Of a DNA stretch of 64,000 nucleotides, positions 1 through 23,070 are shown piece after piece. The stretch's first letter is position 1. The number at the start of each line of letters is the position of its first letter. Position numbers and translations under genes: made by a program. Source of the stretch: an uncultured Pseudomonadota bacterium (lineage in GTDB: Bacteria > Pseudomonadota > Alphaproteobacteria > JACZXZ01); assembly GCA_963749075.1 (NCBI GenBank), contig CAVVLJ010000017.1, forward strand, positions 608,001-672,000, given 5' to 3'. The notes beneath the pieces were generated by a model that was not told the DNA's origin, made no database searches, and was given only the letters and a program-made list of their open reading frames with translations.

Positions 1-1167
1 GCTGCGCGGGGTCATGTTGTCGCGGTCGTCGATCGTGTAGCTCGCCCGCACGTTCACTCGATCCAGCGGCTCCGAGGTGATTGCCGCATTGCCGAAGATC
101 GTGTTGACCAGCCCGTCGAGGCTCGAGCGCGGTATCGAAATCCCGGTCGCGTTCACATTGCCGGTCGAGGGCGCGAAGGCGTCGTTCTGCATCTGCAGCC
201 CGTAGGCGAAATTGACGTTGAGCCGCGTCCTCGGCGTGACATTGAGACCGACCTGGGCCTTGACCTGATGGGCCGAGTTGCTCGGCGGCGTGCTCCAATA
301 GGCGCTCAAGCCGGCGACGCCGGGTCCGAAAGTCGCGGCCGACAAGGCAAAGGGATTCTGACCCTGGAAATAGGTCGTGTTGTCGTTGAAGGCGGAGAAC
401 GTGTAGCCGAGCTGGGCCTGCAGGCGGGCGCCGTTATATTGCGCCATGGCCTCGTAGCGGCCGGTGTCGTAGTTGATCGGCTCGGGGAAATAGAGAACCG
501 CACCGGTGGTCACGGCGCTGTAGGACGGCGAGACCGGGGTGCCGCCGAAGGTCAGGCCGGTCTCCTTGATGCCCTCCTTGTGCTCCTGGCGAATGTTCGT
601 GCTGAAGACCCAATCGCCCACCTGATAGTGGGCATTGCCGCCGAAGATGTTGCGCTGGGTCTTCGCCTCGAGGACGTTCAGCTTGCCCGTGAGCGACGTG
701 GCAGATCCCACGCTGCCCTTGGCTATGCCCGCCGCAAGCGAGCCGTTTGGATTGTAGACGCTGTGGAAGGTGTTGGAGCCATAATAGGGAATGCCGTCGT
801 AGTAGAACTTCAGGCCCCATGTGCCCTGCTGGCCGTAGGCGGCGCTGACGGAGCGGGACGTGAGTCCCAGATTGGCGGCCTCGATGTCCCAATAGTGCGT
901 CCCGCCGGAGTCCCAGGGGTCGTGGCCGCGATAGGTGAAGTCGCCGATCGCGAAACCCGGATCGACCAGCCCGGTGAAGCGGCCGAAGAGGAAGGACTTG
1001 CCGCTGACGTAGCCGGCGCCGACGGTGACCTCATTGGTGCCGCTGGGCTCCGCATTCGCATCGGGAGCGCTTGTCCCAGCGTTGGTGCTTTGAGCCTGCT
1101 GCGCGCGGACTGCAAGCGGCACGAGACAGCTTGCCGCCAATGCCGCGACGATCAATGTGCGCTTCAT
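1..1167 (-). CDS. mtrB: MtrB/PioB-family outer-membrane beta-barrel of a porin-cytochrome complex (3' part runs off the window)
   Basis: Not in the ORF track. Read by hand from ATG 1167: MKRTLIVAALAASCLVPLAVRAQQ...EVTVGAGYVSGKSFLFGRFTGL...NLGLTSRSVSAAYGQQGTWGLKFYYDGIPY. Signal peptide and beta-strand pattern; lies directly downstream of the decaheme gene. Confidence 0.88.
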   Translation of the reverse strand, partial: MKRTLIVAALAASCLVPLAVRAQQAQSTNAGTSAPDANAEPSGTNEVTVGAGYVSGKSFLFGRFTGLVDPGFAIGDFTYRGHDPWDSGGTHYWDIEAANLGLTSRSVSAAYGQQGTWGLKFYYDGIPYYGSNTFHSVYNPNGSLAAGIAKGSVGSATSLTGKLNVLEAKTQRNIFGGNAHYQVGDWVFSTNIRQEHKEGIKETGLTFGGTPVSPSYSAVTTGAVLYFPEPINYDTGRYEAMAQYNGARLQAQLGYTFSAFNDNTTYFQGQNPFALSAATFGPGVAGLSAYWSTPPSNSAHQVKAQVGLNVTPRTRLNVNFAYGLQMQNDAFAPSTGNVNATGISIPRSSLDGLVNTIFGNAAITSEPLDRVNVRASYTIDDRDNMTPRS

Positions 1168-1221
1168 GGTCGCCCCCCATACGCGACTCGCAGTTACGCC
1201 CCAAACTCCCCCGTCAAGCGC

Positions 1222-2193
1222 TCACCGTAAGAAAGCGGCTCCCGCCGGATTGTTCGAACCGTGGATCTGGGAGTGGCAATTGATGCAGCCGTGCGCCATC
1301 AGCTGGAACTTCCCGATGATGGCCCCAGCGAACGTGCCCCCAACCGTGTTCGCGCCGCTATAGGGCTCGCCCGGGTGGAACGTGGTGTCGTGGCAATTCT
1401 GGCAGAGATACGGCGGACGCTCCTTCAGCAGGCGGGCCTGGGTGGAGCCGTGCGGCGTGTGGCAATTGGTGCAGTCCTCCGCCACCGGCGGGTGCTCCCA
1501 GAGAAGCGGACCGCGCTTCTCCGCGTGGCAGGTGTAGCAAGTCTCGTTGATGGTGTACTCCTTGAGGGCCTTCGGACCCGGAGAGCCGTGCGGATTGTGG
1601 CAGTCCGAGCACACCACTTTGCCCTCGCGGATCGGGTGGTGCGAGTACTCGAAGCTCTGCGCACGCTGCTCGGCGTGGCAGGTGAAGCACACCTGCGGCT
1701 GCGTCGCCTTGACCAGCACGGGATCCTTCGCCGCATGCGCGGTGTGGCAGTTGACGCAGGCGACCCCGCTGCTCTCCATCAGGCTGCCCTTCCAGTTCAT
1801 GCGCAGGCCCGACTCGTGACAGCTCAGGCAGACGCCGTTGCGCGCCTCGACCGGCGATTTCTTGGCGCCTCGGAAGACGATCGCCGGCAACACCGTCGTC
1901 GGCGACGCCACATGCGCGGCGCTCGGTCCGTGACAGGTCTCGCAGCCCTGCTGGGCGAACGGCGTGCGCGAATCGCCCGTCACCGCCATCGGCGTCTGGA
2001 ATATGAGGTTAACGGGAGCCTGGTCGTGGCAGCCGAGGCACGTCTTCGTGCCCCCTTCGGCATAGGCTCCGGCCGCTGCTTGCGCCGCCTGCGCTTGCGC
2101 CACCTGCTGTGGCTCGGTCGCCTGCGCCGTCAGCGTCCACCACGCGGCGCCCAGTGCGCACAGAACTCCGACCGTCAGCCTCGCGTTCGCCAT
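1222..2193 (-). CDS. mtrA: Periplasmic decaheme cytochrome c, DmsE/MtrA/MtoA/PioA family
   Basis: Signal peptide, exactly 10 CxxCH motifs, HPIREGKVVCSDCHNPHGS and C-terminal CINCHSQIHGSN typical of the family. Confidence 0.95.
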   Translation of the reverse strand: MANARLTVGVLCALGAAWWTLTAQATEPQQVAQAQAAQAAAGAYAEGGTKTCLGCHDQAPVNLIFQTPMAVTGDSRTPFAQQGCETCHGPSAAHVASPTTVLPAIVFRGAKKSPVEARNGVCLSCHESGLRMNWKGSLMESSGVACVNCHTAHAAKDPVLVKATQPQVCFTCHAEQRAQSFEYSHHPIREGKVVCSDCHNPHGSPGPKALKEYTINETCYTCHAEKRGPLLWEHPPVAEDCTNCHTPHGSTQARLLKERPPYLCQNCHDTTFHPGEPYSGANTVGGTFAGAIIGKFQLMAHGCINCHSQIHGSNNPAGAAFLR

Positions 2194-2838
2194 GGAGCTC
2201 CCCCTCCGCTTCGTGGAGCGCTGATTTGTTGCAGCCGCGCTCCGCTAGCGTCGCGTCTAACTCATGTTGCCGCTCTTCGCATCTTTGCCGTTCTTAGAAG
2301 CCTCTCCTCGTTCCGCGAGCGTCTAACCATTGACCGCGACGACATCGGCGCCGCCCCAAGCGAGGGGCAGCGCGTTCGCGGGAGACAGGCGATGGAAGAG
2401 AACCGCCGTGCGGCCGGCATGCAGCGCCTGGCGCGATCGCCCTGCATCGCGTGCGGCGTGCGCCAGCTTGCGGCTAAGCTGCACTGACACGGCGCCCTTG
2501 GCGAAGCCCCCTAGGGGTTCACCCGGCGCAGCCGCCCCTCTGCACATCGACGCCCCCCATGAGCCGGCCACCCTCAGTCTTAACCCGTCCCCTCAACGCC
2601 AGCCTTCATTCATCTGGACCATTCCGCTCGTCCTTGTGAATGAACGCCTTTTTCAGCCACTGGTACTCTCCGAGGGTTCGCTTGCTTTTTGTAGTGCCAG
2701 GATCATATTTTCAATTAATACCAGACCTATCTTCGTTGTAGACGCTCTCCGCGGCCCCTCGGTTCTCGCCGCAGCGGATGCCGCTCTCGACCTCGACGCG
2801 GCGAGACCATTTCCTACGGTCGATCGACATCTCGGTCT

Positions 2839-2852
2839 CTGATCTGGATCAA
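2839..2852. promoter_or_regulatory. FNR/FixK-type box (1 mismatch) between divergent mtrA and the cbcL-like gene
   Basis: CTGAT-CTGG-ATCAA versus consensus TTGAT-N4-ATCAA. Confidence 0.6.
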
Positions 2853-3127
2853 TGCCGCGAGCCGGAGCTGCGCGAGCGGCCATCCCCGCGCTCCCCGGAC
2901 GACCCTGGCGCTCGACGGCCAGATCGGCCGAGTCGCATAGAAAAATCAGAATGATAACGGCTTCGACGGGGCCTGCGACGGGAGCGACGGCCGCCGCACT
3001 CCGGCCGCGCGATGCGGCCGGTTGCCCTCGCAATTCAGCCCGGCGAGGTCCAATTCCGGTCTTGTCTGCAGCCGCGATGGGCGTACTCTCCCGACGATAA
3101 GGGCTGGGTTACTCGGCCATCTGGGGA

Positions 3128-4940
3128 ATGTCGGATCAAACGGGGAGATCCAGTCCGATGCGACGTGCGAGACTTGCCGTGTGGCTCACGGCAGCCGTCT
3201 TTGGCGGCATGATGTGTTGTCCCGCAACGCCGAGCGCCTGGTCGGCGGAGAGCGCCGCGGCCGGCTCTCATTCCGCCGACCCCGCGGCCGCATCTCCGGA
3301 CCTCAACGACAACGCGACCTGCCTGGCGTGCCATGGCAACCCGGACTTCATCGTGCCGCGGGCCGACGGAAGCGTGCGCTCGCTCTACATCGACAAGAAC
3401 CATTTTGCTGCCAGCGTGCACGGCAAGCTGCTGGTGTGCGTCAATTGCCACACCAAGATCACCGAAATCCCCCACAGGGACGTGTCGAAGACCCTGCTCG
3501 CGTGGCGCCAGAGCATTCCTCCCATATGCGGCACCTGCCACGCCGACCAGCTCAGCCAGTACATGACGTTGGTGCACGCCAAGGAGATCATGAAGGACGG
3601 CAATCCCAAGGCAGCCGTCTGCTCGGATTGCCACGGCGCGCACAACATCGCGAACCCCACACCCGAGCATGTCAGGTTCACCATCATAGAGAACTGCGGC
3701 AACTGCCACCAAGCGCAACTGAAGAGCTACCTCCAGACCTACCACGGCCAGGTCACCATCCTGGGCTACGGGTACACGGCCAAGTGTTTCGACTGCCACG
3801 GCAATCATGCCATCGTGCCGGTCGGCAGCCCGGCATCCCCGGTCTATCCGGCGAACCGGCTCAAGACCTGCCGGAAATGCCACACGCATGCGACGGCCGG
3901 CTTCGAGACGTTCGAGCCCCACGCCACGACCAACAACCTCTCGCGCTATCCCTATACCTGGCTCGCATCGAAATTCATGTTCGCGCTCCTCGGCGGCACG
4001 TTCGCGTTTTTCTGGACGCATTCGGCGCTGTGGTACTACCGCGAGGTGCGGGACCACCTGGCGATGAAGCATCGGCCGCACGTCAAGACGGCCGAGCTGC
4101 TGCAGGACAAGCCCGTCTACTACCAGCGCTGGAGCGCCATGTGGCGCATCGCCCACCTTTCCTTCGCGATCTGCATGATCGCGCTGATCCTCACCGGCAT
4201 GACCCTGTTCTATGCCGACAGCTTCTGGGCGCCGGCGGTCCAGAGGGCGTTCGGCGGCCCGCGCATCACCGGCACGGTCCACCGCATCTTCGCGGTCGTG
4301 TTCGTGTCGATCTTCGTCGCCCACCTCGGCTACGTGGTGGTGCGCGTCGGCAGGCAGTTGCGCACGTTCGACTGGTTCGGGCCGTACTCGATGGTCCCCA
4401 GCCTGAAGGACCTCGAGGACGCCATCGGGATGTTCAGGTGGTTCTTCGGCCTCGGCCCGCAGCCCCTGTTCGACAAGTGGACCTACTGGCAGAAGTTCGA
4501 CTACTGGGCGCCGTTCTGGGGCGTCACCATCATCGGCGTGAGCGGCGCCATGATGTGGTTCAACACCTTGACGGCATCCTACCTGCCCGGGTGGGTGTTC
4601 AACGTCGCCATGATCTTCCACGGCGAGGAGGCCTTCCTGGCCGCCGCGTTCCTCTTCACGGTGCATTTCTTCAACAACCACTGGAGGCCGGAGAACTTCC
4701 CGCTCGACACCATGATGTTCACCGGCGTCATGCCGCTGGAGAAATTCAAGCGGGAGCATATCATCGAGTACAACCAACTCGTCGCATCGGGCCGGCTCGC
4801 GGACTACATCGTCCACGCGCCGTCGCGGCCCATGACGGTCGGCTCCAAGATTTCTGGGCTTCACCCTGATGGCGGCAGGCCTGATCCTCCTGGTCCTGAT
4901 CATGAACGGCTTCGCGCACAACCTGATCACAGGCGAATGA
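3128..4940 (+). CDS. CbcL-like inner-membrane protein: heptaheme cytochrome c fused to an FdnI/HydC-type cytochrome b; +1 indel near 4852
   Basis: 7 CxxCH, then TM helices with conserved His (RIAHLSF, TVHRIFA, IFHGEEAFLA, TVHFFNNHWRP) and KFDYWAPFWG. Removing one T at ~4852 restores a final TM helix ILGFTLMAAGLILLVLIMNG ending at TGA 4940. Confidence 0.85.
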
Positions 4941-5140
4941 TCATGGGCCGCAGGCTTCCGGCGGCCAGGAGAAGAGACTCGCTTGGCCCCGTTGCGGAGC
5001 AACCGATCGCGCGCCGCTGACATCGCCGCCGCAGTGCAGCTCCATTATCGCCTGCGCCGCATTGATCCAAGGCGAAGTTCAGGGCTAAGCTCCCGGCGCG
5101 CGCAGGGTCTCGGGCGGAGCGGTGGCAGCCGGAGAACGGC

Positions 5141-6772
5141 ATGAATCGGCAAAGCCTCAAGTTCAAGGTCGGTCTCTATCTCACCGCGGCACTTTCCCTG
5201 GCGGTGGTTCTGTTCACCGTGGTGGTCGCCTGGAATCAGCGGAACGAGCTGCTCGACACGGTGGCCGGCTACGTCATCCAGCTTTCCGAGGTCATTACCA
5301 GAAGCACGCGTTTCGCAATGCTTCAGAATCAGCCCGCCTACGTGGATACCATCATCCGCGACGTAGCCCAGCAGGAAGGCATCGACAGGATCAGGATCTT
5401 CAGCGCGGACGGCAGGATCACGCATTCGACCTACCCTCCCGAGATCGGCCAGATCGTGGACCGCAAGGCCGAAGGCTGCTCGCTGTGCCACCAGACCGAG
5501 AAGCCGCTCGAGGAAGTTCCCATGGGCAAGCGGACATGGACCTTCACGGCCCCCGGAGGAGAGCGTCTTTTGGGCAGCATGCAGGTGATCCGCAATGCGC
5601 CCTCCTGCTACAACGCCGCCTGTCATCAGCACGCCAAGGACACCCCCGTGCTCGGCGTCCTCGATATCCGCTATTCGCTGAACGACATGGATCGGAGGAT
5701 CCGCGGGAACGTGCTTACGATCATCGCATTTTCCCTGGGATTCGTGCTCGTCGCCTCGCTCACGGTCGGCCTTTTCGCCCACCCTCTGGTCTATGTGCCG
5801 CTGCGCGATTTGGAAGCCGGGGCGAGGCGCATCGCCGCCGGCAATCTGGAGGAGCCCATTCCGGTGCGGAGCGGCGACGAGTTCGGCGAGCTTGCGCGCT
5901 CCTTCAATGCCATGACGGCAGCGCTGCGGAATTCCCGCTCGGAGCTGCGCGAGTGGGCGGCGACGCTCGAGCAGAAAGTCGAGAGAAGAACCGAGCAGCT
6001 CCGCATTGCCCAGGCCGAAGCCACGCGGGGAGAAAAGCTGGCTTCGGTCGGACTGCTCGCCTCCGGCATCGCCCACGAGCTGAACAATCCGTTGACCGGC
6101 GTCCTCACCTTCTCGCAGCTGCTGCGGGAAAAGATGGCGGACGGGAGCCAGGACGCGGAGGACATGGACCTCGTGATCCGGGAAACCAGGAGGTGCGCCA
6201 GCATCATCCGAAGGCTGCTCGATTTCGCGCGAGAGAAGCCGCCGGAGAAGAAATTCGCCGACCTCAACCAGATCATCGAAGACACCGCCCGTCTCGTCGA
6301 ACGGCCCGCCCATTTGCGCGATATCGCCGTCACCCTGGACCTCGACCGAACCCTGCCGCAGGCCTGGATCGACCCGGACCAGATCAAGCAGGTCGTCATG
6401 AACCTGCTCGTCAACGCCCAGCATGCGATCGACGGAGAGGGCGGCATCGTTGTGCGCACGCGGCAAGTGCCGCACCCGAGAGCCTCGCAACCTGGCGCCA
6501 CCGCCGCGCCGATGGTGGAATTTTCGGTCAGCGATACCGGATGCGGAATACCCAATGAAAACTTCGGGCGGATTTTCGATCCCTTCTTCACCACCAAGAT
6601 CGGAATGGGCACGGGACTGGGATTGTCCGTCAGCCATGGCATCGTCGAGGCTCATGGCGGTACGATCGAAGTCGAAAGCGAAGTGGGGGAGGGCTCCACA
6701 TTCCGGGTCCGCCTCCCTCTCGTCCGGTCGCCCGAACTCGTGGACAGCGGCAGTCGAGGGAACATTTCGTGA
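5141..6772 (+). CDS. Sensor histidine kinase with periplasmic heme c motif, HAMP, HisKA and HATPase domains
   Basis: Two TM helices flank CSLCH and CYNAACH; H-box AHELNNPL, N-box NLLVNA, DTGCG, FFTTK, GTGLGL. Confidence 0.92.
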   Translation: MNRQSLKFKVGLYLTAALSLAVVLFTVVVAWNQRNELLDTVAGYVIQLSEVITRSTRFAMLQNQPAYVDTIIRDVAQQEGIDRIRIFSADGRITHSTYPPEIGQIVDRKAEGCSLCHQTEKPLEEVPMGKRTWTFTAPGGERLLGSMQVIRNAPSCYNAACHQHAKDTPVLGVLDIRYSLNDMDRRIRGNVLTIIAFSLGFVLVASLTVGLFAHPLVYVPLRDLEAGARRIAAGNLEEPIPVRSGDEFGELARSFNAMTAALRNSRSELREWAATLEQKVERRTEQLRIAQAEATRGEKLASVGLLASGIAHELNNPLTGVLTFSQLLREKMADGSQDAEDMDLVIRETRRCASIIRRLLDFAREKPPEKKFADLNQIIEDTARLVERPAHLRDIAVTLDLDRTLPQAWIDPDQIKQVVMNLLVNAQHAIDGEGGIVVRTRQVPHPRASQPGATAAPMVEFSVSDTGCGIPNENFGRIFDPFFTTKIGMGTGLGLSVSHGIVEAHGGTIEVESEVGEGSTFRVRLPLVRSPELVDSGSRGNIS

Positions 6773-8193
6773 GCGTGAAAATATTGGTCGTCGACGACGA
6801 GCGCATCATTATCGACAGTTGCCTTCGCATCTTGAGGAACGACGACTATCAGCTCGATGCCGTCCAGGACGGTTTGGAGGCGCTGCGCAAGATCGACGAG
6901 AACCATTACGACATCGTCATCCTGGACATCATGATGCCGAAGATCGACGGCCTCGAGGTGCTGCGCCGCGTCAGGGAGGGGCACCCCGACATCGATGTCA
7001 TCATGATCACCGGACTGTCGCAGATCGAGACGGCCGTGAAATCGATGAAGCTCGGGGCCTTCGACTACCTGCCCAAGCCGTTCGATCCGGACGAGCTCAG
7101 GCTCGTGGTGCATCGCGCGCTGGAGCGGCGGCGATTGCTCCAGGAGAACCTGAATCTCAAGACCGAGGTCGGCGCCAAGTACCGCTTCGAGAACATCATT
7201 GGGGCGAGCCCCCAGATGCAGAGCGTCTTCCGCCTTGTCGCCAAGTGCGCTCCGACCAACTCGACGGTGATGCTCACCGGCGAGTCGGGAACGGGCAAGG
7301 AGCTGATCGCTCGCGCCATTCACTACAACAGTCTGCGCAAGGACAAGCCGTTCGTCCCGGTGGACTGCAACGCGCTCAGCGAGAACCTGCTGGAGAGCGA
7401 GTTGTTCGGGCACGTCAAGGGCGCCTTCACCGGCGCTGTGGCGAACAAGAAGGGCATGCTGGAAACCGCCGGCGGCGGAACGCTTTTTCTCGACGAGATC
7501 GGCAATATCTCCCTCTCGACCCAAGCCAAGCTGCTGCGGGTCATTCAGGAGCGGGAGTTCAGGGCGGTCGGGGATACCAAGACGCAGGCCGCCAACTTCA
7601 GATTGATCACCGCGACCAACAAGGACCTCAAGGCCATGGTCGCGGACGGCAGGTTCCGCGAGGATCTCTTCTATCGGATCAACATCTTCCCCATCCGCAA
7701 TCCGCCGCTGCGAGAGCGCCGCGACGACATACCTGCCTTGGCCTTCCACTTCCTCGGCGTCTTCAGCGGGGAGATGGCGAAAAAGGTGACGGAGTTCTCC
7801 GACGAGGCCATGCGCGTGCTCATGAACTACGATTGGCCGGGCAATGTGCGGGAGCTCGAAAGCACGGTGCAGCGCGCGGTCATTCTGGCGACCGACGCCG
7901 TCATTCGCCGGGCGCATCTGTTCAGCATCGACGAGTTGCCGCCGGGGCTTGCTCTCGACATCCCGAAAACGGGCGAGGAGCTCAAGCAGATCAAGAAACT
8001 TGCGCGCGAGAAGTCGGTCGAGAACATCGAGAAGCTGTTCGTTCTCGATGCGCTCAAGAGAAACGCCTGGAACGCGACCAAGAGTGCCGAGGAGACCGGC
8101 ATGCAGCGCGCCAATTTCCAGGCTCTGATGAGAAAATACAACATCCGGATCCAGGAAGCCGAGCGCGATCCCGGCGAGCCCGATGCCTCGTAG
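6769..8193 (+). CDS. Sigma54-dependent NtrC-family response regulator
   Basis: Receiver domain, GESGTGKE, ESELFGHVKGAFTGA, WPGNVREL, C-terminal HTH; overlaps the kinase stop (GTGA). Confidence 0.95.
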   Translation: MSVKILVVDDERIIIDSCLRILRNDDYQLDAVQDGLEALRKIDENHYDIVILDIMMPKIDGLEVLRRVREGHPDIDVIMITGLSQIETAVKSMKLGAFDYLPKPFDPDELRLVVHRALERRRLLQENLNLKTEVGAKYRFENIIGASPQMQSVFRLVAKCAPTNSTVMLTGESGTGKELIARAIHYNSLRKDKPFVPVDCNALSENLLESELFGHVKGAFTGAVANKKGMLETAGGGTLFLDEIGNISLSTQAKLLRVIQEREFRAVGDTKTQAANFRLITATNKDLKAMVADGRFREDLFYRINIFPIRNPPLRERRDDIPALAFHFLGVFSGEMAKKVTEFSDEAMRVLMNYDWPGNVRELESTVQRAVILATDAVIRRAHLFSIDELPPGLALDIPKTGEELKQIKKLAREKSVENIEKLFVLDALKRNAWNATKSAEETGMQRANFQALMRKYNIRIQEAERDPGEPDAS

Positions 8194-9591: not shown

Positions 9592-9596
9592 CTTGC

Positions 9597-14611: not shown

Positions 14612-15922
14612 ATGAAGGACTTGAACGATCCGGCTCCCCGCAAGGGGCTCGTCGCGCGCGCTCTGGCCGTCATGCCGCTGTGCCGTACGCCTCTCACCCT
14701 CGCGACATCCGTCATTGCGGCAAGCATCCTCGGGATGCCGTTCCTGGTCGGCTATTCGCCGAGTGCTGCAGCTCAACCCGTCACGATCCAGCCCGGCAGC
14801 GCCGAGGAGCTCCGAGCCGTGTTCGCCAACGCCGAGGACGTGGCGGACGGCAAGCACCTCGCGGACACCTCCTGCGCCAGCTGTCACGGCGCGATCGGTA
14901 TCAGCGCCAAGCCGGGCGTGCCCAATCTCGCCGGCCAGCGGCCAGCCTACCTTTACCTCGAGCTGAAGGCCTACCAGTCGGGTGCGCGCGGCGACAGCGC
15001 GATGAACGACGCCGTCAAATTCCTGAGCGACGCCGCGCTGTTCAAGGTGGCCGCCTACTACGCCAGCCTCGATCCCGCAGAGCCCGGTGCGGCGAGCGGC
15101 GCGAAGCCCCCCGCTGCCGAGGCCGATCCGGTCCAGGCCGGCAAGGCCGCAGCGGCCGGCTGCGCCGGCTGCCACGGCGAGGCCGGCGTCAGCAAGACGG
15201 CGGGCATGCCGAGCCTCGCCGGCCTCGACCCGAAATACCTCGAAGCAAGCATGCAGGCCTACAAGGGAGGGCAACGCAAGAGCGAGCTCATGAAGCCGAT
15301 GGTCGCGGCGCTCGGCGATGCGGATATGAATAACATTGCGCTCTACTATGCGCTGCAAAAGCCCGCCCGGGCCGAGACCCCAGCGGCCGGAGACCCGGCC
15401 GCGGGCAAGGCCGCGGCTGCAAGCTGTGCCGCGTGCCATGGCGACCACGGCGTCAGCGCGAACCCAGCATTCCCGAGCCTCGCCGGTCAGGATGCGGAGT
15501 ACTTCGCGAGCGCGCTCCACGCCTATAAGGACGGCGGCCGCGAAGACGAAACAATGAAAGGCCAGGCGGCGTCGCTTGGCGACGGCGCCATCAAGGACCT
15601 GGCGGCCTATTACGCGAGCCAGCAGCCGCAGGAGCCGAAGGTGCAGAAGCCCCTGAGCGCCGCCGAATGGGCGCAGAGGTGCGACCGCTGTCACGGCGTC
15701 AACGGCAACAGCACCGATCCGAGCTTGCCGGCCTTGGCCGCACAGCGCGCGGACTATCTGGAAAAAGTGTTGCATGCCTACCGGACGGGCGCGCGCAAGA
15801 GCCCGCAGATGGCCGCCATGTCCGGCGCGCTGGCCGACGAGGATATCGAGAACCTGGCGGCCTACTACGCGCGCCAGAAGGCGCGCGCCGTCGTGTACGT
15901 GATGGTGCCGCTCAAGAAGTGA
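14612..15922 (+). CDS. Second four-domain cytochrome c4/c553-type protein
   Basis: CASCH, CAGCH, CAACH, CDRCH with PxLAGQ motifs and distal Met; start may be a later codon. Confidence 0.9.
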   Translation: MKDLNDPAPRKGLVARALAVMPLCRTPLTLATSVIAASILGMPFLVGYSPSAAAQPVTIQPGSAEELRAVFANAEDVADGKHLADTSCASCHGAIGISAKPGVPNLAGQRPAYLYLELKAYQSGARGDSAMNDAVKFLSDAALFKVAAYYASLDPAEPGAASGAKPPAAEADPVQAGKAAAAGCAGCHGEAGVSKTAGMPSLAGLDPKYLEASMQAYKGGQRKSELMKPMVAALGDADMNNIALYYALQKPARAETPAAGDPAAGKAAAASCAACHGDHGVSANPAFPSLAGQDAEYFASALHAYKDGGREDETMKGQAASLGDGAIKDLAAYYASQQPQEPKVQKPLSAAEWAQRCDRCHGVNGNSTDPSLPALAAQRADYLEKVLHAYRTGARKSPQMAAMSGALADEDIENLAAYYARQKARAVVYVMVPLKK

Positions 15923-16063
15923 GCGGGCCGCGGGGATCGTAATCCGGGGCCGGTGCCGCGTCCGGCGCATTGGCCGTAGCGAGCAACACCGAGGCCGCAG
16001 CGCCTAAGCCGCCGCATGAGCCCTGCCCGTGCGCTCCGGCTCGCAAGAGCGAAGGAACCGACC

Positions 16064-16852
16064 ATGAGTGATGTGCGACTGCACCGGCTTTATCATCATT
16101 TTTCGGAGCTGCCATATAGCCAGCGCGTCGTGTACACGGCGACGCTCCTCATATTCGGGCTGGGCTACCTCTTCGCCTTGACCTACGTCTATCACACCTA
16201 CGCCGGGCGGGCCGGAGGGAACCCCAAGATACTGTCGTACGAGGACCTCGTCGTCGCCTACAGCGGCAGCGGAAAGGGCTCGCGACTCGAGACGGCCCTG
16301 CGCGGACCGATGTCGACCATGCTGCCGCGCGACGAGCTCGACTCCATCATCGCCTGGGTGCGCCAAGGTGCCACGAGGGCAAAATACGAGACAGACATCA
16401 AGCCGGTGCTCGACAAGCGGTGCATGGCCTGCCACGACGGCAGCAATCCGCACCTTCCGAACCTGAACGGATACGAGAACCTGACGAAAATGACCGAGCA
16501 GGACACCGGCGCCAACGTCTTCACGCTGGTGCGCGTGTCGCATATCCACCTGTTCGGCGTCACCTTCATCTTCTACATCATGGGCATGATCTACAGCCAC
16601 GCCTACGTGCGGCCCGTGTGGTTCAAGTGCGCCGTCGCCGCAATGCCGTTCCTCTGCGTCTCGATGGATGTCAGCTCTTGGTATTTCACCAAGCTCTATC
16701 ATCCGTTCGCCCTGCTCGTGATGCTCGCCGGTGCCCTGATGGGCGCCTCCTTCGCGCTCATGTGGGTCACGTCGATGTATCAGCTGTGGTTCTCCAAGAC
16801 GCCTTCGCCGGTCGCCCTGAGGGAGAGCGGCGATATTCCCAACGTTGACTGA
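16064..16852 (+). CDS. Integral membrane protein with one heme c motif, function unknown
   Basis: N-terminal TM helix, periplasmic loop with CMACH, then VRVSHIHLFG and three more TM helices; AAGGA RBS. Confidence 0.75.
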   Translation: MSDVRLHRLYHHFSELPYSQRVVYTATLLIFGLGYLFALTYVYHTYAGRAGGNPKILSYEDLVVAYSGSGKGSRLETALRGPMSTMLPRDELDSIIAWVRQGATRAKYETDIKPVLDKRCMACHDGSNPHLPNLNGYENLTKMTEQDTGANVFTLVRVSHIHLFGVTFIFYIMGMIYSHAYVRPVWFKCAVAAMPFLCVSMDVSSWYFTKLYHPFALLVMLAGALMGASFALMWVTSMYQLWFSKTPSPVALRESGDIPNVD

Positions 16853-17021
16853 GTGCAACCGGGGAAATCCTCGGATCGCTACGTCCGAGGAAGCGTCGCC
16901 CTAGCGATAGGGCGTTCCGGCGCGCCGCACTCCGGCCGCAAATCCGATACGGCCCCCGCGCCGCTTACCCGGAGCGATGCCGGGCTTGCCCGCTTGAGCA
17001 GCCGCACCCGCGCCGGGGCCG

Positions 17022-17405
17022 CTACTTCGCCTTCTCCTTGAGAAAGGCGATGACGTCCTGGATGTCTTGATCGCTCTTGAGAGCGCCGGCCAACATCTTG
17101 GTGCCGGGAACGTCGGCCTTCGGGTCCTTGAGGAACTTCGCCAGGCTCGCCTCGTCCCAGGTGATGCCGGACTTCATCATGGCATCCGAGTATTTGAAGC
17201 CTCCGCCCGTGCCCGCCTTGCGTCCCATGACGCCGTTGAGGCTCGGGCCCATCCCGTTCTTGCCTTGATCAAGGCTGTGGCAAGCCTTGCATTGGCCGGT
17301 GAAGACCTTCTCGCCGTTCGCCACATCGCCGGCCGCAAGCGCCTCGCCGGCCGCTACGGAAAACGCCAGCGCGGTCGTGAGCGCAACGAGGTTAAGCTTG
17401 AGCAT
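17022..17405 (-). CDS. Cytochrome c2 (class I), copy 2
   Basis: Signal peptide, GDVANGEKVF, CKACH, GPSLNG, FKYSDAM, PGTKM. Confidence 0.92.
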   Translation of the reverse strand: MLKLNLVALTTALAFSVAAGEALAAGDVANGEKVFTGQCKACHSLDQGKNGMGPSLNGVMGRKAGTGGGFKYSDAMMKSGITWDEASLAKFLKDPKADVPGTKMLAGALKSDQDIQDVIAFLKEKAK

Positions 17406-17488
17406 TTCTCTCACCCTTTCAAGATCGCGGCGCTCCCGGTCGCCATCGGTCGCGCGGCAATTGAGCACCCGCAGCTGCGTTGGGGAAG

Positions 17489-17873
17489 CTACTTCGCTTT
17501 TTCCTTGAGGAAGGCGATGACGTTCCTGAATGTCCTGATCGCTCGAGAGCGAGCCGGCCAGCATCTTGTTGCCGGGAACTGCGGCCTTCGGGTCCTTGAG
17601 GAACTTCGCCAAGTTCGCCTCGTCCCAGCTGATGCCGGATTTCATCATCGCATCCGAGTACTTGAAGCCCGCGACCGAGCCCGCCTTGCTTCCGACGATG
17701 CCGTTAAGGCTCGAGCCCATCCCGTTCTTACCCTGATCGAGGCTGTGGCAAGCCTTGCAATGGCCGGCGTAGACCTTCTCGCCGTTCGCCACATCGCCGG
17801 CGGCGAACGCTTGGCCGATGGCGAGGGAAAGCGCAAGCGCGGCCGTGAGTGCTACGAGGTTCGACTTCAGCAT
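17489..17873 (-). CDS. Cytochrome c2 (class I), copy 1; +1 indel near 17523
   Basis: Close paralog of copy 2 (CKACH, PGNKM). Removing one base restores DVIAFLKEKAK-TAG as in copy 2. Confidence 0.88.
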
Positions 17874-17971
17874 TGTTCGTCCCCCTTTGAGATCGAGTTG
17901 CCTTCGGTTTCCATCGGCCGGGCGACAGTCCCGGCCGATGTTGCGGCGGCGATCAAGGCGCCAGGCAGGCA

Positions 17972-18386
17972 TCAATTGTCCTTGGCGCCCTGAAATATCC
18001 AAGTCCAGATGGCATTGCGATCGCAGCTCGACAGCTGCTTCTTGCCGTGCGGCATGCGGAGTTCGGGCGAGGCGCGCCAGTTGAGCAGCCACATCAGATT
18101 GCTGGCATCCGGATCGTGGGGCACGACCATTGGCCCGAACTTGGTGCCCTTCAACAGTCCCGCGTAAGTCGTCAAGTCCAGCCCGCTCTTGTCGTATCCC
18201 TCGCCGCCCGGTTGGTGGCAGGAGATGCAGCGTCCCTTGAAGATCGGGAAGATATCCTCGGAGAAGCTGACCGTATCTTGCGCCGCGCACGCCTCGCGTG
18301 ACCGCATCGTCAGATTCTGCGGCCGCCGCGGCTAGAGCGAGAGCGGCGGCGAAGATCGCGGCGTGGTATTTTCTCATGACCGTCAT
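17972..18386 (-). CDS. Small exported monoheme cytochrome c (planctomycete cytochrome C-like domain); +1 indel near 18313
   Basis: Signal peptide MTVMRKYHAAIFAAALALAAA in one frame; VSFSEDIFPIFKGRCISCH...LDLTTY...RMPHG...WIFQGA in the next. Confidence 0.75.
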
Positions 18387-18603
18387 CTTTCATCAGCCCC
18401 GGCGCCTCAACGATCCATCGCCGCCGAATGCTCCCCGTGCGGCTCGCGGCGCATTCCCCGAATGGCGACTACGCCTTTGTAATTGAAGCGCTTATCGGCA
18501 ATCGGCAGTTTCCATGGGTCGGCGCGGTCTTTGTAGTGCCAGGGCCGTAGAATCGGGTCATACCAGAAGACTTTCTCGTTGCCGCGCCGCGAGCGGCGCG
18601 ATC

Positions 18604-20094
18604 CTATGCCGCTCTCAGCGGCTTCCTGTTGCCCGTCCCCTCCGTCCGTGGTGCTATGGCCTCCGCCAGATCGGCGACTCCTTTGCGGATGTCCGCCTCC
18701 GACAACGCCCCATATCCCAAGAACAACGTGTGATTGGCATTTTCGCACCACGCGCGCTCCTCCGCGACGAGATCCGGCAAGGTGCAGACGCCGACCTCGC
18801 TCGCGCGCGCCAATCGCCGCACCTCGGGTGCCGGCGGGAAGCCGGGCGGCAGGAACCACGCCACGTGCGCCCCGGCCTCGGTACCGGCGAGCCGGACCTC
18901 GCCGAAATGTTGGCGCAGCGCAGCCCATAGGCCATCGCGCCGAGCCAGATGGATCTTGCGGACGCGGCGCAGGTGGCGGGCAAAGCCGCCGCTCTCGATG
19001 AATTTGGCCAGGCTGACTTGCTCGAGCCACGCCGGGCCATTCCCGACGAGCGCCTTGAGCGAAAGCATCGGCGCCACCAGCTCGGGCGGCACGACCATGT
19101 AGGCCAGGCGAAGCCCGGGGCCGAGCGTGCTCGTAAAATCGCCGACGAAGACTACCGTCCCAGCGACATCGAGGGCTTGCAGCGGGGCCGGCGGCACGCC
19201 GCGGTACCAAACGCCGCTGCCGCATTCGTCCTCCAGGATATGAGAACCGGCCTGCCGGGCCCATGCGATGAGGCGCTTGCGCCGTGCCGGCGGCAACGTG
19301 CCCCCCACCGGATATTGGTGCATGGGCGCGACATAGGTGAGCGTCACCGGACCGTGCGGCAGGCGATCCACGTCCAAGCCATGCTCGTCCACCGGCACCG
19401 GCACCAGCTCGGCGCCCTGGCTCGCCAGCGCTCTCGCCACCTCGTCCGGGCAGGTACATTCGACGACGACGCGGCTGCCGCGCGGGGCGAGATGGCGGGC
19501 CAGGATGTAATAGGCTTGATGGCGATTCGAGACGATCACGATTTGCTCCGGCGGCACGGCTATGCCGTGGCTCACGATCAGCCAGTCGGCGATGGCCCGG
19601 CGCAGGCATTCGAGGCCGGGCGGCGGATCGAATGCGACCCGCGCGCGGTAGTGCTCGATGGAGGGCAAAATGAGCTTCCGCCAGACCTTGAGCGGAAAGA
19701 GCTGGCCATCGAAGTGACGCGGGTCGAAGTCGATGGCGGGCGGAGCCGGTACCACCATTTGCGCTGCGCCGCCGCCTCGCTCGCTCCGCGATGCCGTCTC
19801 GCGTCTTGCCTTGTCCGCGCCGGCGCCCGGGCGCCTCGCGATCGCGTCGGCCGGCGGCTCGCTGCTGACGAAGGTGCCGACGCCAGGCCGCGTCTGCAGA
19901 TAGCCTTCGGCGATCAGCTGCTCGTGAGCCAGGAGTGCGGTCGTCCGCGACACGCCGAGCTGCTCGGCCAATTGGCGCGTCGCCATCATCGGCGCCCCGG
20001 GCTTCAGGCGGCGCTCGGCGATGAGCGCCCGCAGCTGCTCGTAAATCTGCACCTGCAGGGGCCTGGTCGAGCTGCGATCGATCTTGAGCACCAT
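18604..20094 (-). CDS. MocR/GabR-family regulator (GntR HTH plus PLP aminotransferase-like domain)
   Basis: PLQVQIYEQLR..., LGVSRTT, EGYLQTRPGVGTFV, HQYPVG, ILEDE, PGLRLAYMV. Confidence 0.9.
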   Translation of the reverse strand: MVLKIDRSSTRPLQVQIYEQLRALIAERRLKPGAPMMATRQLAEQLGVSRTTALLAHEQLIAEGYLQTRPGVGTFVSSEPPADAIARRPGAGADKARRETASRSERGGGAAQMVVPAPPAIDFDPRHFDGQLFPLKVWRKLILPSIEHYRARVAFDPPPGLECLRRAIADWLIVSHGIAVPPEQIVIVSNRHQAYYILARHLAPRGSRVVVECTCPDEVARALASQGAELVPVPVDEHGLDVDRLPHGPVTLTYVAPMHQYPVGGTLPPARRKRLIAWARQAGSHILEDECGSGVWYRGVPPAPLQALDVAGTVVFVGDFTSTLGPGLRLAYMVVPPELVAPMLSLKALVGNGPAWLEQVSLAKFIESGGFARHLRRVRKIHLARRDGLWAALRQHFGEVRLAGTEAGAHVAWFLPPGFPPAPEVRRLARASEVGVCTLPDLVAEERAWCENANHTLFLGYGALSEADIRKGVADLAEAIAPRTEGTGNRKPLRAA

Positions 20095-20239: not shown

Positions 20240-20983
20240 TCAGCGGGTCACGACCAGCCGCTGGTAGAGTCCGCCGAAGAAGGACGTGTTGCGCAAAGCT
20301 TGGCCGGCCCAGGGATGCGGCAGGCAAGCCGCGAGGTCGCCGCGCCACAAGTCGGGCGCGAAGGGCTCGAGCACCGCCAGCACGGGAAGCCAGAGATAGC
20401 GCAACGGGTGCCAACGGCTCGGCCGGGCATAATCGACGACGAGGATGGTGCCGCCGGGCCTGACCACGCGGAACACCTCGCTGAGCGTGCGCCGGCGCAC
20501 CTCGGCGGGCTGCTCGTGCAGCAGAAAGAAGACCATGGCGCGGTCGTAACTGGCGTCGGGCAGACCGAGCTCGGCCGAATCCCTCGCCAGCAAGCGCACC
20601 GGAGCGTCCGCCGGCAGCTTCCGCCTGAGGTTCTCGAGCTGGATCGGCAGAATATCGACGATATCGAGCGCCCCGCCGCCGGCGGCGACCCGTTGGCTGA
20701 GCCGGCTCGTGAGATCGCCATAGACGCAGGCCACCTGCAACGTGCGGCCGGATAGCGAATCGCCCAATTCGGAGAGCGCCGCGTCGCGCAGGCGGCGATA
20801 ATTCCCCCACAGGATCAAATTGACCAGCCATTGGCGCTCGAAGAGGCGAACCGCCTTGGGATGGATATAGGCCCACCAATAATGGGCCTTGAGATAGTGC
20901 GGCACTCCGTCGCCGGCGCCCGTCGCCGGGAGCGTCGCCGAATCAGCAGGAGGAGCGATGCCGGAATGTGGGGTCATGCCCAA
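20240..20983 (-). CDS. rquA: Rhodoquinone biosynthesis protein (methyltransferase-like)
   Basis: VPHYLKAHYWWAYIHPKAVRLFERQWLVNLILWGNY, QVACVYG (degenerate SAM motif), FFLLHEQP, FFGGLYQ: RquA signature. Confidence 0.9.
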   Translation of the reverse strand: MGMTPHSGIAPPADSATLPATGAGDGVPHYLKAHYWWAYIHPKAVRLFERQWLVNLILWGNYRRLRDAALSELGDSLSGRTLQVACVYGDLTSRLSQRVAAGGGALDIVDILPIQLENLRRKLPADAPVRLLARDSAELGLPDASYDRAMVFFLLHEQPAEVRRRTLSEVFRVVRPGGTILVVDYARPSRWHPLRYLWLPVLAVLEPFAPDLWRGDLAACLPHPWAGQALRNTSFFGGLYQRLVVTR

Positions 20984-21288: not shown

Positions 21289-21421
21289 GCGGCACGGCGT
21301 CCGCGAAGGCTAGCATATCTCTCGTGGTGCGGCGATATGTTGCGTTTTCATGTGCAGCGGGCGGCCCCAAGCGCCGAAGATGCGCGGGTCCGGCTCCTGT
21401 TCCAGGATCGGGCGGGTGAAT

Positions 21422-22636
21422 ATGGACTATGAGCGCAGATTCCGCGACGTCCTCGGCTCGCTGCAGTCCGAAGGGCGTTACCGCGTCTTCGCCGATCTCG
21501 AGCGCCGGGCCGGCGACTTTCCGCACGCCCTGTGCCACGGAGCCGACGGCCGGACCCGCGAAATCGTGGTCTGGTGCAGCAACGACTATCTCGGCATGGG
21601 CCAGCACCCGCTCGTGATCGCCGCCATGAAGGAGGCCCTCGAGACCTGCGGTGCCGGCGCCGGGGGCACGCGCAACATCTCCGGCACCAACCATTACCAC
21701 GTGCTGCTCGAGCGCGAGCTCGCCGAGCTGCACGGCAAGGAGGCGGCCCTTCTCTTCACCTCGGGCTATATCTCCAACGAGGCGACGCTCTCGAGCCTGA
21801 GCCGGCTGCTCCCGGGCTGCATCGTCTTCTCGGACGAGCGCAACCACGCTTCGATGATCGAGGGTATCCGCCACGGCGGCTCCGAGAAGCGCATCTTCCG
21901 GCACAACGATCCCGCCGACCTGGAGCGCCTGCTTGCCGAGGCCGATGCGGCGGCGCCGAAGCTCGTCGCCTTCGAAAGCGTCTATTCGATGGACGGCGAC
22001 ATCGCCCCCATCGCCGAGCTCTGCGCTGCCGCCGAGCGCCACGGCGCCCTCGTCTATCTCGACGAGGTGCATGCGGTCGGGCTCTACGGCGAGCGCGGCG
22101 GCGGCATCTCGGAGCGCCAGCGCGTGGCGCAGCGGATTCCGGTGATCGAGGGCACGCTGGCCAAGGCCTTCGGCGTGATGGGCGGCTACATCGCCGGCTC
22201 GGCAGCACTCGTCGACGCGGTGCGCAGTCACGCCGCGGGCTTCATCTTTACGACCGCCCTGCCGCCGCACGTGGCTGCCGGGGCGCTCGCGAGCGTGCGC
22301 CACCTCAAGGGAAGCGGGCGCGAGCGCGCGCAGCACCAGGAGCGCGCCGCCGCGCTGAAGCGCCGGCTCGCCGAGGCCCGCCTCCCGCTCATGCCGACGG
22401 AGAGCCACATCGTGCCGCTGCTCGTGGGCGACGCGCGGCTCTGCAAATCGGCTTGCGACGAGCTCCTCGAGCGCCACGGCATCTACGTGCAGCCGATCAA
22501 TTACCCGACCGTGCCGCGGGGCACCGAGCGGCTGCGCCTGACGCCAAACCCGCTGCACACGGATGCGCACATGGACGCGCTCGTTGCGGCACTGGCCGAG
22601 GTGTGGAGGCGCTTCGGCTTGCAGCGCGCGGCCTAG
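21422..22636 (+). CDS. hemA: 5-aminolevulinate synthase
   Basis: [61 protein letters not shown]. Confidence 0.96.
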
Positions 22637-22640
22637 CTCC

Positions 22641-23070
22641 GTGCTGAGCCAGAGGGTCGAACGCGCGCTGCCACGCTGCGAGCCCGAGCAGCTCTTCGAT
22701 CTCGCCGCCGACGTTCGAGCGCTATCCCGAGTTCCTGCGCTGGTGGATCGCGGCGCGCATCCGCAAGCGCGAGGCCGATGTCTACTACACCGACCAGATC
22801 CTCGGCCTCGGCCCCATCCGCCTAAGGTTCGGCTCCAAGACGGTCCTGCGCCGGCCGCAGCGCATCGAGGTGAGCTCGGACGAGGGACCGTTCCGGCGCT
22901 TCGGCCTCATCTGGACCTTCGAGCCGCAGCCGCGCGCCGGCTGCCGGGTGAGCCTCGCCGCCGAGCTCGAGCTGCGCTCCGCTCTCCTGCAACGCGTCGT
23001 CGACCGCGTCCTGCCGGTTGCCGTAGCCGATATCATCGCTGCCTTCGAAGCGCGCGCCCGCGGACTCTGA
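22641..23070 (+). CDS. Coq10/RatA(PasT) START-domain quinone-binding protein; +1 indel near 22714
   Basis: Reconstructed EPEQLFDLAADVERYPEFLRWW...SSDEGPFRRF...W.FEP...IIAAFEARARGL. Confidence 0.75.

Follow-up and report, generated by a model that had tools for sequence, protein, structure and literature searches.

Porin–cytochrome conduits for extracellular electron transfer (EET) have been studied mainly in Shewanella, Geobacter, and a few iron oxidizers. Homologues of the Geobacter cytochrome CbcL, termed MtoC in Dechloromonas aromatica and Gallionella capsiferriformans and MtrH in Rhodoferax ferrireducens, are reported to be encoded beside mtoAB or mtrCAB and to be about 35 per cent identical to CbcL, and seven further species are reported with the same pairing; the CbcL family as described there spans 3–23 heme motifs (PMC6295460). 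Both mtoC and mtoD have been reported almost only from Betaproteobacteria (PMC8805035). The cbcBA operon of Geobacter (GSU0593–0598) is described as having a sigma-54 promoter, two small proteins and a receiver encoded within it, and the regulator BccR adjoining; its CbcA is a seven-heme protein with a C-terminal helix anchor that seemingly supplies a fourth histidine, and CbcB is a four-helix protein with a thiosulfate-reductase-like annotation (bioRxiv 10.1101/2021.04.15.440034). The locus described here lies at the beginning of a 64-kb stretch from an uncultured soil alphaproteobacterium (genome G000, contig C17, positions 608001–672000; hereafter the window, in whose positions coordinates are given) and holds genes of both kinds, a Mto-type conduit with a CbcL-like partner (module A) and a CbcBA-type operon in the style of Geobacter (module B). 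There is reasonable ground to regard the locus as an accessory, horizontally moved island for EET, and we think it probable, though far from assured, that it joins the two modules as one EET chain in which export is the favored direction.

The assembly comprises 5.49 Mb in 23 contigs and is 96.3 per cent complete. Genes were identified by protein-family profile scans (bit scores are given against curated cut-offs) and by counts of CxxCH motifs. A six-frame count finds 39 CxxCH in positions 1–23070, exactly the number given in the preliminary description of this DNA, against one in the remaining 41 kb of the window; among 23-kb bins of the genome (n = 227) the median is zero, and the top bin outside the locus holds six. 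Nearly all CxxCH motifs of the genome therefore sit in the locus, which leaves few other c-type partners. The preliminary description had seen here a compact EET gene set, running from an outer-membrane porin–cytochrome to two different inner-membrane bc modules and provided with regulators of its own, and the family scans recover all of its parts (mtrB and mtrA, both bc modules, the carriers, hemA, hemG, rquA, the Coq10-like protein, and the regulators). The alphaproteobacterial host that it named agrees with the kin at class level and with a genome of the same genus (G134). The genes of the two modules and of the carriers between them are as follows.

−1067 to 1167, minus strand: mtrB/mtoB-type outer-membrane beta-barrel porin, 744 aa, of which the N-terminal 389 aa lie inside the window
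1222–2193, minus strand: mtrA/mtoA-type periplasmic decaheme cytochrome, 323 aa, 10 CxxCH
3128–5020, plus strand: fusion of a seven-heme c-type part and a cytochrome b, mtoC/cbcL family, 603 aa after removal of an insertion
5141–6772, plus strand: sensor histidine kinase with HAMP, HisKA, and HATPase_c domains
6769–8193, plus strand: NtrC-type sigma-54-dependent response regulator with Response_reg, Sigma54_activat (234.8 bits), and AAA_lid_14
8258–8893, minus strand: hemG, quinone-dependent protoporphyrinogen IX dehydrogenase (NF008316)
8947–9591, minus strand: cbcB-like four-helix cytochrome b, PhsC-like (PF01292)
9597–10908, minus strand: cbcA-like nine-heme c-type cytochrome, 436 aa and 9 CxxCH after removal of an insertion
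11220–12026, minus strand: receiver-domain protein with C-terminal membrane helices (RR268), Response_reg 97.9 bits
12052–12519, minus strand, likely ATG at 12501: single-domain receiver (RR155), first gene of the operon, Response_reg 109.8 bits
12548–12562, minus strand: sigma-54 −24/−12 element TGGCAC-N5-TTGC, a zero-mismatch site
13194–14306, plus strand: tetraheme periplasmic cytochrome of two c4-type diheme units, Cytochrom_C 92.7 bits, 4 CxxCH
14612–15922, plus strand: second tetraheme c4-type cytochrome, Cytochrom_C 102.6 bits, 4 CxxCH
16016–16852, plus strand: membrane monoheme cytochrome of the Aq_1264_TM type (matches in clusters carrying PF27139)
17022–17405, minus strand: cytochrome c2/cH-type monoheme carrier, copy 2 (structural relatives 1qn2 and 1co6)
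17489–17873, minus strand: cytochrome c2-type monoheme carrier, copy 1 of the tandem duplicate, 127 aa after removal of an insertion
17972–18386, minus strand: secreted PSCyt1-type monoheme cytochrome, PF07635 40.8 bits, 137 aa as corrected

The conduit itself is readily assigned. The porin matches PF11854 with 208.2 bits in its window part and with 410.8 bits over the whole gene (profile positions 27–635), and TIGR03509 finds the window part at E 1.7e-64, which is below the cut-off only from truncation. MtrA passes TIGR03508 (303.1 against 192.2), aligns with PDB 6r2q chain A over residues 11–320 (E 3.8e-77), and is encoded 55 nucleotides upstream of mtrB on the same strand. The fusion protein passes PF01292 (38.7 against 30.1) and matches multiheme families as well, with an N-terminal seven-heme c-type part followed by a C-terminal b-type membrane domain. 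Of 77 homologues, at least 76 retain six of the seven heme motifs and at least 74 retain histidines 298, 343, 385, 498, 513, 518, and 544, the 513/518 pair being present in all 77; histidines in successive membrane helices together with such a pair are the pattern described for CbcL (bioRxiv 10.1101/2021.04.15.440034). By this architecture the fusion protein is a probable member of the CbcL/MtoC/MtrH group, and it is called MtoC below.

Cytochromes that could connect the membranes are abundant in the same module. The first c4-type tetraheme scores 124.8 bits with the PdsA model, below its cut-off of 330, and the best solved relatives of the second are cytochromes c4 (6q2u at 1e-21, 1etp, and 1h1o, the last being the c4 of Acidithiobacillus ferrooxidans). 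Copy 2 of the c2 pair has cytochrome cH (1qn2) and cytochrome c2 (1co6) as its best solved relatives, at E of about 1e-28; homologues of the c2 genes are also present in relatives without the cluster. The membrane monoheme protein has 15 Atlas matches in clusters of PF27139 (Aq_1264_TM), of which the top three score 0.99, and its CxxCH at 136–140 and histidines 176, 178, and 195, which lie in membrane helices, are kept in 30–31 of 31 sequences, a pattern suggesting that it may be a third membrane redox site. This cytochrome and the sensor kinase treated below are both uncharacterized and both carry clear conservation signals.

A scan of species genomes with the fusion protein gave 249 relatives, from which 80 loci were kept, with flanks of at most 10 kb and often less. 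They come from Xanthobacteraceae and other alphaproteobacterial metagenome-assembled genomes (MAGs), Burkholderiales, Thiobacillus, Sulfuricaulis, Chromatiaceae, Thiodiazotropha, and others. The neighbors of mtoC in these loci include MtrA (22), MtrB (17), the first and second c4 tetrahemes (34 and 39), the membrane monoheme (29), HemG (14), the kinase (12), the NtrC-type regulator (11), a separate cytochrome b (8), and rquA (2); hemA, the Coq10-like open reading frame (ORF), the MocR regulator, and the c2 genes are found in none. The trio of two c4 cytochromes and the monoheme accompanies 19 of the 22 loci that hold MtrA.

Module A resembles the described Mto clusters in its decaheme MtrA, its MtrB porin, the adjacent CbcL-homologous fusion, the lack of MtrC, the extra periplasmic class-I cytochromes, and its modular horizontal spread. 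It differs from them in its alphaproteobacterial host (a sample of 401 genomes of the class yielded MtoC in 4), in having no outstanding MtoD-like match, its monohemes being of the c2/cH type, and in the addition of two c4 tetrahemes, the Aq_1264_TM-type cytochrome, a regulated CbcBA-type operon, and hemG. The preliminary description knew of no described system with such a hybrid; MtoAB or MtrCAB beside a CbcL homologue is nonetheless in print (PMC6295460, PMC8805035), and the hybrid conduit is thus a known kind in a new host class. A CbcBA operon joined to a Mto cluster in Proteobacteria, and the recurring link to rquA discussed below, we did not find in print.

Other conduits that dispense with or require MtrC were compared in the same manner. 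PioAB(C) of Rhodopseudomonas palustris TIE-1 is likewise an MtrAB homologue without MtrC in an alphaproteobacterium, but no photosynthetic reaction center was found in any of six genomes of the genus, the flank holds no high-potential iron–sulfur protein (HiPIP), inner-membrane Cbc modules are present, and MtrA, at 323 aa, is far shorter than PioA. Unlike the MtrCAB systems of the Shewanella type, no MtrC or OmcA is encoded with the mtrAB of the window, and unlike DmsEFAB, no dmsAB lies beside the porin–cytochrome. The flank that, according to the preliminary description, should be inspected for mtrC, HiPIP, or dms genes was scanned: the 20 kb to the left of the window hold genes for a chromate transporter, an aminotransferase, CinA, a dehydrogenase, and an ABC transporter, and none of these three. 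More broadly, neither the window nor the 20 kb to its left was found to encode a NapC/CymA-type protein, MtrC, HiPIP, or a dms product, family scans of the window and left flank gave no molybdopterin oxidoreductase, and no additional multiheme ORF lies within 20 kb past mtrB or in the interval from mtrA to mtoC. PF22113 (MtrC-type) appears only as weak cross-matches inside MtrA, MtoC, and other cluster cytochromes. PF03264 (CymA/NapC) gives only marginal cross-matches in MtrA (25.8 bits) and MtoC (23.4 bits) and no passing stretch, and the rest of the window has a single CxxCH, in keeping with the original statement that the window encodes no CymA/NapC. Membership in an extracellular dimethyl sulfoxide reductase was rejected on the left flank, which has neither dms nor molybdoenzyme genes.

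Three smaller observations concern module A. Directly after mtrB, at −1489 to −1127 (G000:C17:606512–606874, minus strand), lies a 120-codon ORF with a signal-peptide-like start, which has no family match and is not common to G134. A repeat of about 100 bp at approximately 3029–3140, covering part of the mtrA–mtoC spacer and the first mtoC codons, occurs on many contigs of G134 and of a second genome of the genus, G288, at 75–82 per cent identity; the window's own genome has only two other copies, at 74–76 per cent, and the repeat has no Rfam match. In another genome (G408), locus L151 (G408:C17:16000–35900) carries on one strand rquA, mtrA, mtrB, a second mtrA–mtrB, a c4 tetraheme, the membrane monoheme, and, after a gap of 1.5 kb, a six-heme ORF; with L039 it makes up a cluster of about 30 kb.

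Module B has a promoter of its own. No other site in the 64-kb window matches TGGCAC-N5-TTGC without a mismatch, and the whole genome of 5.49 Mb, which also encodes rpoN, has 13 such sites; the element lies about 30–50 nucleotides before the first receiver gene, and an element at a like position is found in loci L048, L039, L013, and L036, making five of eight loci with the window included. In the kinase, membrane helices 12–30 and 191–209 flank a periplasmic domain bearing a CxxCH and a Cx4CH, and C113/C116/H117 and C156/C161/H162 are invariant in all 11 orthologues. The kinase is probably a heme-c redox sensor, and the NtrC-type regulator encoded with it has the architecture of a BccR-like activator. 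RR268 contains two copies of a membrane-helix motif, with helices at 174–192 and 236–254. As a separate observation, L039 carries this motif in two copies as a small ORF of its own directly behind the sigma-54 site (about 13220–12870, minus strand), which may correspond to the small hypothetical proteins that head the Geobacter cbcBA operon.

The CbcB-like protein matches PF01292 with 80.7 bits, and among curated models it comes closest to the thiosulfate reductase b subunit (NF011582, E 1.1e-37, below cut-off), the name that its Atlas neighbors also bear. It has four hydrophobic segments, and histidines 16, 51, 167, and 181 are invariant in nine of nine sequences. The CbcA-like protein has a signal peptide and a C-terminal membrane helix (157–175 in the numbering of the C-terminal fragment); H176, which follows directly, is invariant among all eight sequences. 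A predicted complex of the CbcB-like protein and this C-terminal fragment scores 0.70, against 0.02 for the best of three controls; of 157 solved complexes 116 attain the mark applied, and of 215 mismatched pairs 2 do so, counts that are approximate, own alignments having been used. The runs agree in at least 48 per cent of contacts, the partner pLDDT is at least 61, and the interface places the anchor stretch 152–187, including H176, against helix 4 of the CbcB-like protein. Solved hydrogenase–cytochrome b complexes are arranged alike, and the pass of the model may reflect that likeness. In two gammaproteobacterial MAGs (L020:6915–8969 and L028:14381–16396) the CbcA-like and CbcB-like parts form one ORF of 672–685 aa, similar to the fusion reported for Chloroflexi.

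The last gene of the operon, hemG, passes NF008316 by a modest margin (153.8 against 142), and a related flavodoxin-like function is possible. A HemJ gene lies elsewhere in the genome, so that hemG appears as an accessory, island-borne enzyme, and it fits a supply of heme in the absence of oxygen. With cbcBA of Geobacter the operon shares the sigma-54 promoter, a receiver within the operon, an anchored multiheme c-type cytochrome with its histidine, a four-helix cytochrome b, and a neighboring sigma-54-dependent regulator. The differences are nine hemes instead of seven, two receivers, of which one is membrane-anchored, hemG as an operon gene, an activator that is paired with a heme-c kinase, a kinase–activator pair that converges on the operon instead of diverging from it, and a host without menaquinone, the substrate in Geobacter.

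Four genes of the locus are interrupted or fused in the assembly as deposited, and it might be supposed that mtoC, the cbcA-like gene, the c2 pair, and the small monoheme cytochrome carry true frameshifts, the cluster being in decay and the pathway no longer working. Contigs of two public soil-metagenome runs (one study) were compared with positions 1–20000 of the window; one of them, run X1, may represent the very sample that yielded the window, and the comparison is an assembly check, not independent evidence. Against the run contigs the window has single-base insertions at 4851, 10264, 12798–12800, 17523, and 18315, about one per 4 kb, and at precisely the four positions that affect these genes (4851, 10264, 17523, and 18315) the base is missing from the run contigs, throughout the full depth of the contig that covers it. 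The insertion at 10264 breaks the cbcA-like gene into pieces of six and three hemes, that at 17523 fuses the two c2 genes, that at 18315 deprives the small monoheme ORF of its signal peptide, and past residue 575 the tail of the fusion protein diverges owing to the one at 4851. Removal of the bases restores full-length proteins like those of relatives, namely the 603-aa seven-heme fusion, the 436-aa nine-heme protein, a 127-aa c2 with its own stop, and the 137-aa secreted monoheme. In addition, the cbcA-like gene is a single ORF in seven of eight related loci, the eighth being cut by a contig end, and alignment with the closest relative shows one extra base in the window's copy. Because the run contigs lack the four bases, the frameshifts belong to the assembly and the four genes are intact; decay of the cluster is highly improbable. 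ORF calls elsewhere in the genome may suffer from similar insertions.

The limits of the island follow from DNA comparison with three kin, G134 (same genus, the genome of locus L048), G288 (same genus), and G404 (same family), supplemented by local alignment. Homology with G134 spans positions −1076 to 18259 at 69–87 per cent identity, with nothing shared on either side; there the block stands among unrelated genes, with a second copy of the fusion gene, and the PSCyt1-type monoheme gene is kept but inverted. The block is absent from G288 and G404, and only two of the 11 genomes available for the family encode MtrA. Neither MocR nor rquA is matched at the DNA level in any of the three kin, and no integrase or transposase was found at the block borders. 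The co-inherited block therefore measures about 19.3 kb and leaves out MocR, rquA, hemA, and the Coq10-like ORF, so that the single 23-kb unit originally proposed shrinks accordingly.

Module B is not confined to such islands. A metagenome scan with the alignment of the CbcB-like protein found relatives encoded in 469 of 600 candidate stretches, of which 80 were kept, 37 of them at least 6 kb long. Of these 37 loci, 36 have a CbcA-like gene, 27 the NtrC-type regulator, 26 RR268, 25 the kinase, 19 the small receiver, and 11 HemG; the fusion protein is encoded in 5 and MtrA in 4, and rquA is present in none. Module B is thus a widespread, self-standing unit that is coupled to module A only in some genomes. 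Such figures could indicate a chance juxtaposition, in which MtrAB–MtoC, the CbcBA-like genes, the c2 genes, and rquA serve separate respiratory tasks (an unrelated periplasmic reductase, for example, or fumarate reduction), and the same would be suggested by the CbcB-like gene being present in only 8 of the 80 MtoC loci, by the c2 homologues of cluster-less relatives, by the position of rquA and hemA outside the common block, and by the frd genes that adjoin rquA in L020. Yet both modules travel as one block, whose flanks are unrelated in the two genomes that share it, at least nine genomes of several lineages have them side by side in varying gene order, and the kinase and NtrC pair stands directly beside mtoC in 11–12 of the 80 loci. 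The locus also holds nearly all genomic CxxCH, which leaves each module few other partners, and many contigs are short, so that absences from the flanks are weak evidence. We regard a mere juxtaposition as improbable. In our reading, uncultured Alpha-, Beta-, and Gammaproteobacteria of soil and peat hold a transferable package of a Mto-type conduit and a sigma-54-regulated CbcBA-type module.

Given the gene content, architecture, promoter element, co-inheritance, and intactness observed above, we infer partners, substrates, and direction as follows. When oxygen is absent and the redox potential low, the heme-c sensor kinase and the NtrC activator would switch on the sigma-54 promoter at 12548–12562, which would drive the two receivers, the cbcA-like and cbcB-like genes, and hemG. 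CbcBA and MtoC would oxidize quinol at the inner membrane, and the electrons would then pass by way of the periplasmic c-type carriers to MtrA within MtrB and exit to acceptors such as humic quinones or Fe(III) in soluble or chelated form; MtoC may also allow the chain to run inward.

The preliminary description left the direction undecided, and evidence for export and for uptake stands on both sides. Export is suggested by the CbcBA-type operon, by hemG, and by rquA in a host without menaquinone genes; in Geobacter, CbcBA is reported to serve the lowest-potential Fe(III) reduction (bioRxiv 10.1101/2021.04.15.440034). Several points weigh against it. The genome encodes a cbb3 oxidase; MtrC is missing, as it is in the Fe(II)-oxidizing MtoAB and PioAB; and the carriers are of the c4 and c2 types, usually high-potential donors to oxidases, with 1h1o among their relatives. 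MtoC is best known from iron oxidizers (PMC8805035), and MtoC and MtoD are tied in the literature to iron-oxidizing Betaproteobacteria (PMC8805035, PMC6295460). In addition, module B is placed with CbcBA (GSU0593/0594) by architecture and family names, so that its membership is putative. The cbb3 oxidase, the missing MtrC, the c4/c2 carriers, and the associations of MtoC would all suit an inward Mto-type uptake, in which electrons from extracellular Fe(II), reduced humics, or a cathode-like donor pass through MtrA and the c4/c2 carriers to the cbb3 oxidase and, uphill through MtoC and CbcBA, to the quinone pool.

We consider such uptake rather unlikely. No photosynthetic reaction center was found in six genomes of the genus, and in the window's genome there is no true RuBisCO, the only RuBisCO-like match being weak and partial (51 bits), so that autotrophic or phototrophic iron oxidation is not to be expected. 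The CbcBA-type operon and hemG suit anoxic conditions of low potential. The potential of rhodoquinone lies below that of ubiquinone, and a low-potential rhodoquinone would hamper uphill entry to the pool. Since MtoA and PioA sequences do not sort into clades by function (Baker et al. 2022, PMC8805035), neither the missing MtrC nor an MtrA tree settles the direction. A c4-like diheme shuttle, PdsA, is reported to work outward in Aeromonas and Vibrio (PMC8805035), and weak PdsA matches are present here. Neither set of observations is decisive; about one half of the weight may be placed on export and about one quarter on uptake, with the rest on a reversible or an unconnected system.

Which quinol would feed an exporting chain is a question that leads to the genes beyond the block.

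18604–20094, minus strand: MocR/PdxR-type GntR-aminotransferase regulator (NF052282, 348.5 against 320), downstream of rquA on the same strand
20240–20983, minus strand: rquA, rhodoquinone biosynthesis methyltransferase (NF038261, 286.8 against 175)
21350–22636, plus strand: hemA, 5-aminolevulinate synthase (TIGR01821, 648.6 against 338.55)
22648–23070, plus strand, start codon uncertain: START/polyketide-cyclase (Coq10/RatA-like) ORF (PF03364, 64.6 against 23.4)

The predicted enzyme RquA matches NF038261 over model positions 1–218, and its gene lies 2 kb beyond the block. No MenA or futalosine-pathway family was found in the 96 per cent complete genome, nor a fumarate reductase of the FrdC type. 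Because the genome has no menaquinone pathway, rhodoquinone made with the adjacent rquA is likely to be the low-potential quinol for the bc modules and for HemG. Like the RquA systems described in Rhodospirillum rubrum and Rhodoferax ferrireducens (PMC6529003), the window has an RquA above the cut-off, a host otherwise expected to contain only ubiquinone, and an anaerobic low-potential setting; unlike them, the window and five other genomes have rquA within 20 kb of a porin–cytochrome/Cbc cluster.

The linkage recurs in other lineages. Passing its cut-off in 27 of the 401 class-sample genomes, rquA is found in 12 of 33 genomes that bear the cluster (2 of 5, 3 of 5, and 6 of 22 in three sets, and the window's own), and in 6 of these 12 it lies on the cluster contig at no more than 20 kb. 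In L013 it precedes mtoC by 4.4 kb, and both in L020 and in its sister G406 it follows mtrB at about 3.3 kb; in G408 it stands at least 205 nucleotides upstream of an mtrA on the same strand, and in G426 about 9.9 kb beyond the final cytochrome gene. At 28 rquA sites in 26 other alphaproteobacterial genomes, by comparison, the flanks hold no MtrA, MtrB, fusion protein, cytochrome b, or ORF with at least three CxxCH. A tree of 36 RquA sequences places the five linked ones that it includes in one 12-row clade with 100/99 support, alongside seven unlinked. Thus rquA is recurrently, though not universally, linked to such clusters, and its inclusion in the system by the preliminary description holds in part: the gene is outside the co-inherited block and yet returns beside like clusters elsewhere.

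It is possible that RquA acts as a quinone adapter for EET, such that menaquinone-evolved Cbc quinol oxidases become usable in ubiquinone-only Proteobacteria once rhodoquinone is made, with rquA being kept beside the islands and spreading with them. We advance this tentatively. A recipient of an mtr island is held to need menaquinone genes (Baker et al. 2022, PMC8805035), and R. ferrireducens, which makes rhodoquinone (PMC6529003), reduces Fe(III) and carries both mtrCAB and a CbcL homologue (PMC6295460). Our literature searches turned up no paper that ties rhodoquinone or rquA to porin–cytochromes or EET, and the phylogenetic profiling reported for rquA names no co-occurring gene (PMC6529003). 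Several observations speak against a dedicated link. G134 has the block and lacks rquA, which is outside the common block; rquA is absent from 21 of the 33 cluster-bearing genomes and lies on another contig in the remaining 6 of the 12 that have it. In the metagenome scan with the CbcB-like protein, the flanks of all 80 loci (37 being 6 kb or longer) were without rquA; such flanks are mostly too short to reveal it, linked rquA sitting 9–19 kb from cbcB. L020 has fumarate reductase genes in the interval from mtrB to rquA, so that rhodoquinone may serve fumarate respiration there. An association of rquA with MtoC at the level of the class was considered and rejected, no other rquA genome in the class sample having MtoC.

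If the adapter reading is true, the need of Mtr-type islands for a low-potential quinone would be met by one gene, and rhodoquinone would have a further, new function in the physiology of soil and peat. Iron- or humic-respiring bacteria would become easier to predict, and the reading would name a minimal gene set for low-potential export in ubiquinone-only hosts. Two cluster genomes without rquA have a MenA-like prenyltransferase below all curated cut-offs, at L060:474–1550 (G410) and G134:C47:7199–8308; the former is about 1.6 kb upstream of mtoC on the same contig, and the latter has no other men genes around it. Such a gene may be an alternative route to a low-potential quinone.

The remaining two genes of this region have weaker ties to the cytochromes. 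The preliminary description took hemA for dedicated heme synthesis, but it is one of three paralogues (the others, at G000:C17:370778–372001 and C20:668503–669741, are 69 and 77 per cent identical), and its orthologue is kept in G134, G288, and G404 on other contigs, away from any cluster, G288 and G404 being without the cluster altogether. It is a conserved neighbor and no part of the system. One of the paralogues lies about 3 kb from a weaker second ccoN-like match (C17:375008–376342). The START/Coq10-like ORF reaches only 37.6 against 258 with the RatA model, and a gene of this kind also stands beside rquA in L013, L124, L126, and, weakly, L238. This recurrence ties the ORF to rquA and not to the cytochromes, and a quinone-binding helper linked to rquA is a possible function.

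Two further features lie shortly beyond the locus.

23971–24282: HigB-like toxin ORF (PF05015, 102.1 bits), just left of the tRNA
24631–24723: tRNA-Ser, Rfam-supported

A short ORF at about 24280–24600, after the toxin ORF, might be an antitoxin, and positions 23976–24574 match G288 at 81 per cent identity. An Rfam scan of positions 1–26000 at E ≤ 0.01 gave only the tRNA-Ser and one overlapping below-threshold match, the mtrA–mtoC spacer having no riboswitch or known RNA, and a 96-nucleotide 'tRNA-His(atg)' called by ARAGORN at 23603 was discarded for want of Rfam confirmation. Farther along the window, a stretch at about 47100–53000 has a low GC of 0.55–0.63, against about 0.69 around it. Its genes encode a DNA methylase (PF01555) and a restriction endonuclease of the BglII type (PF09195), along with a weak match to DndB, and it probably represents a small defense island of its own.

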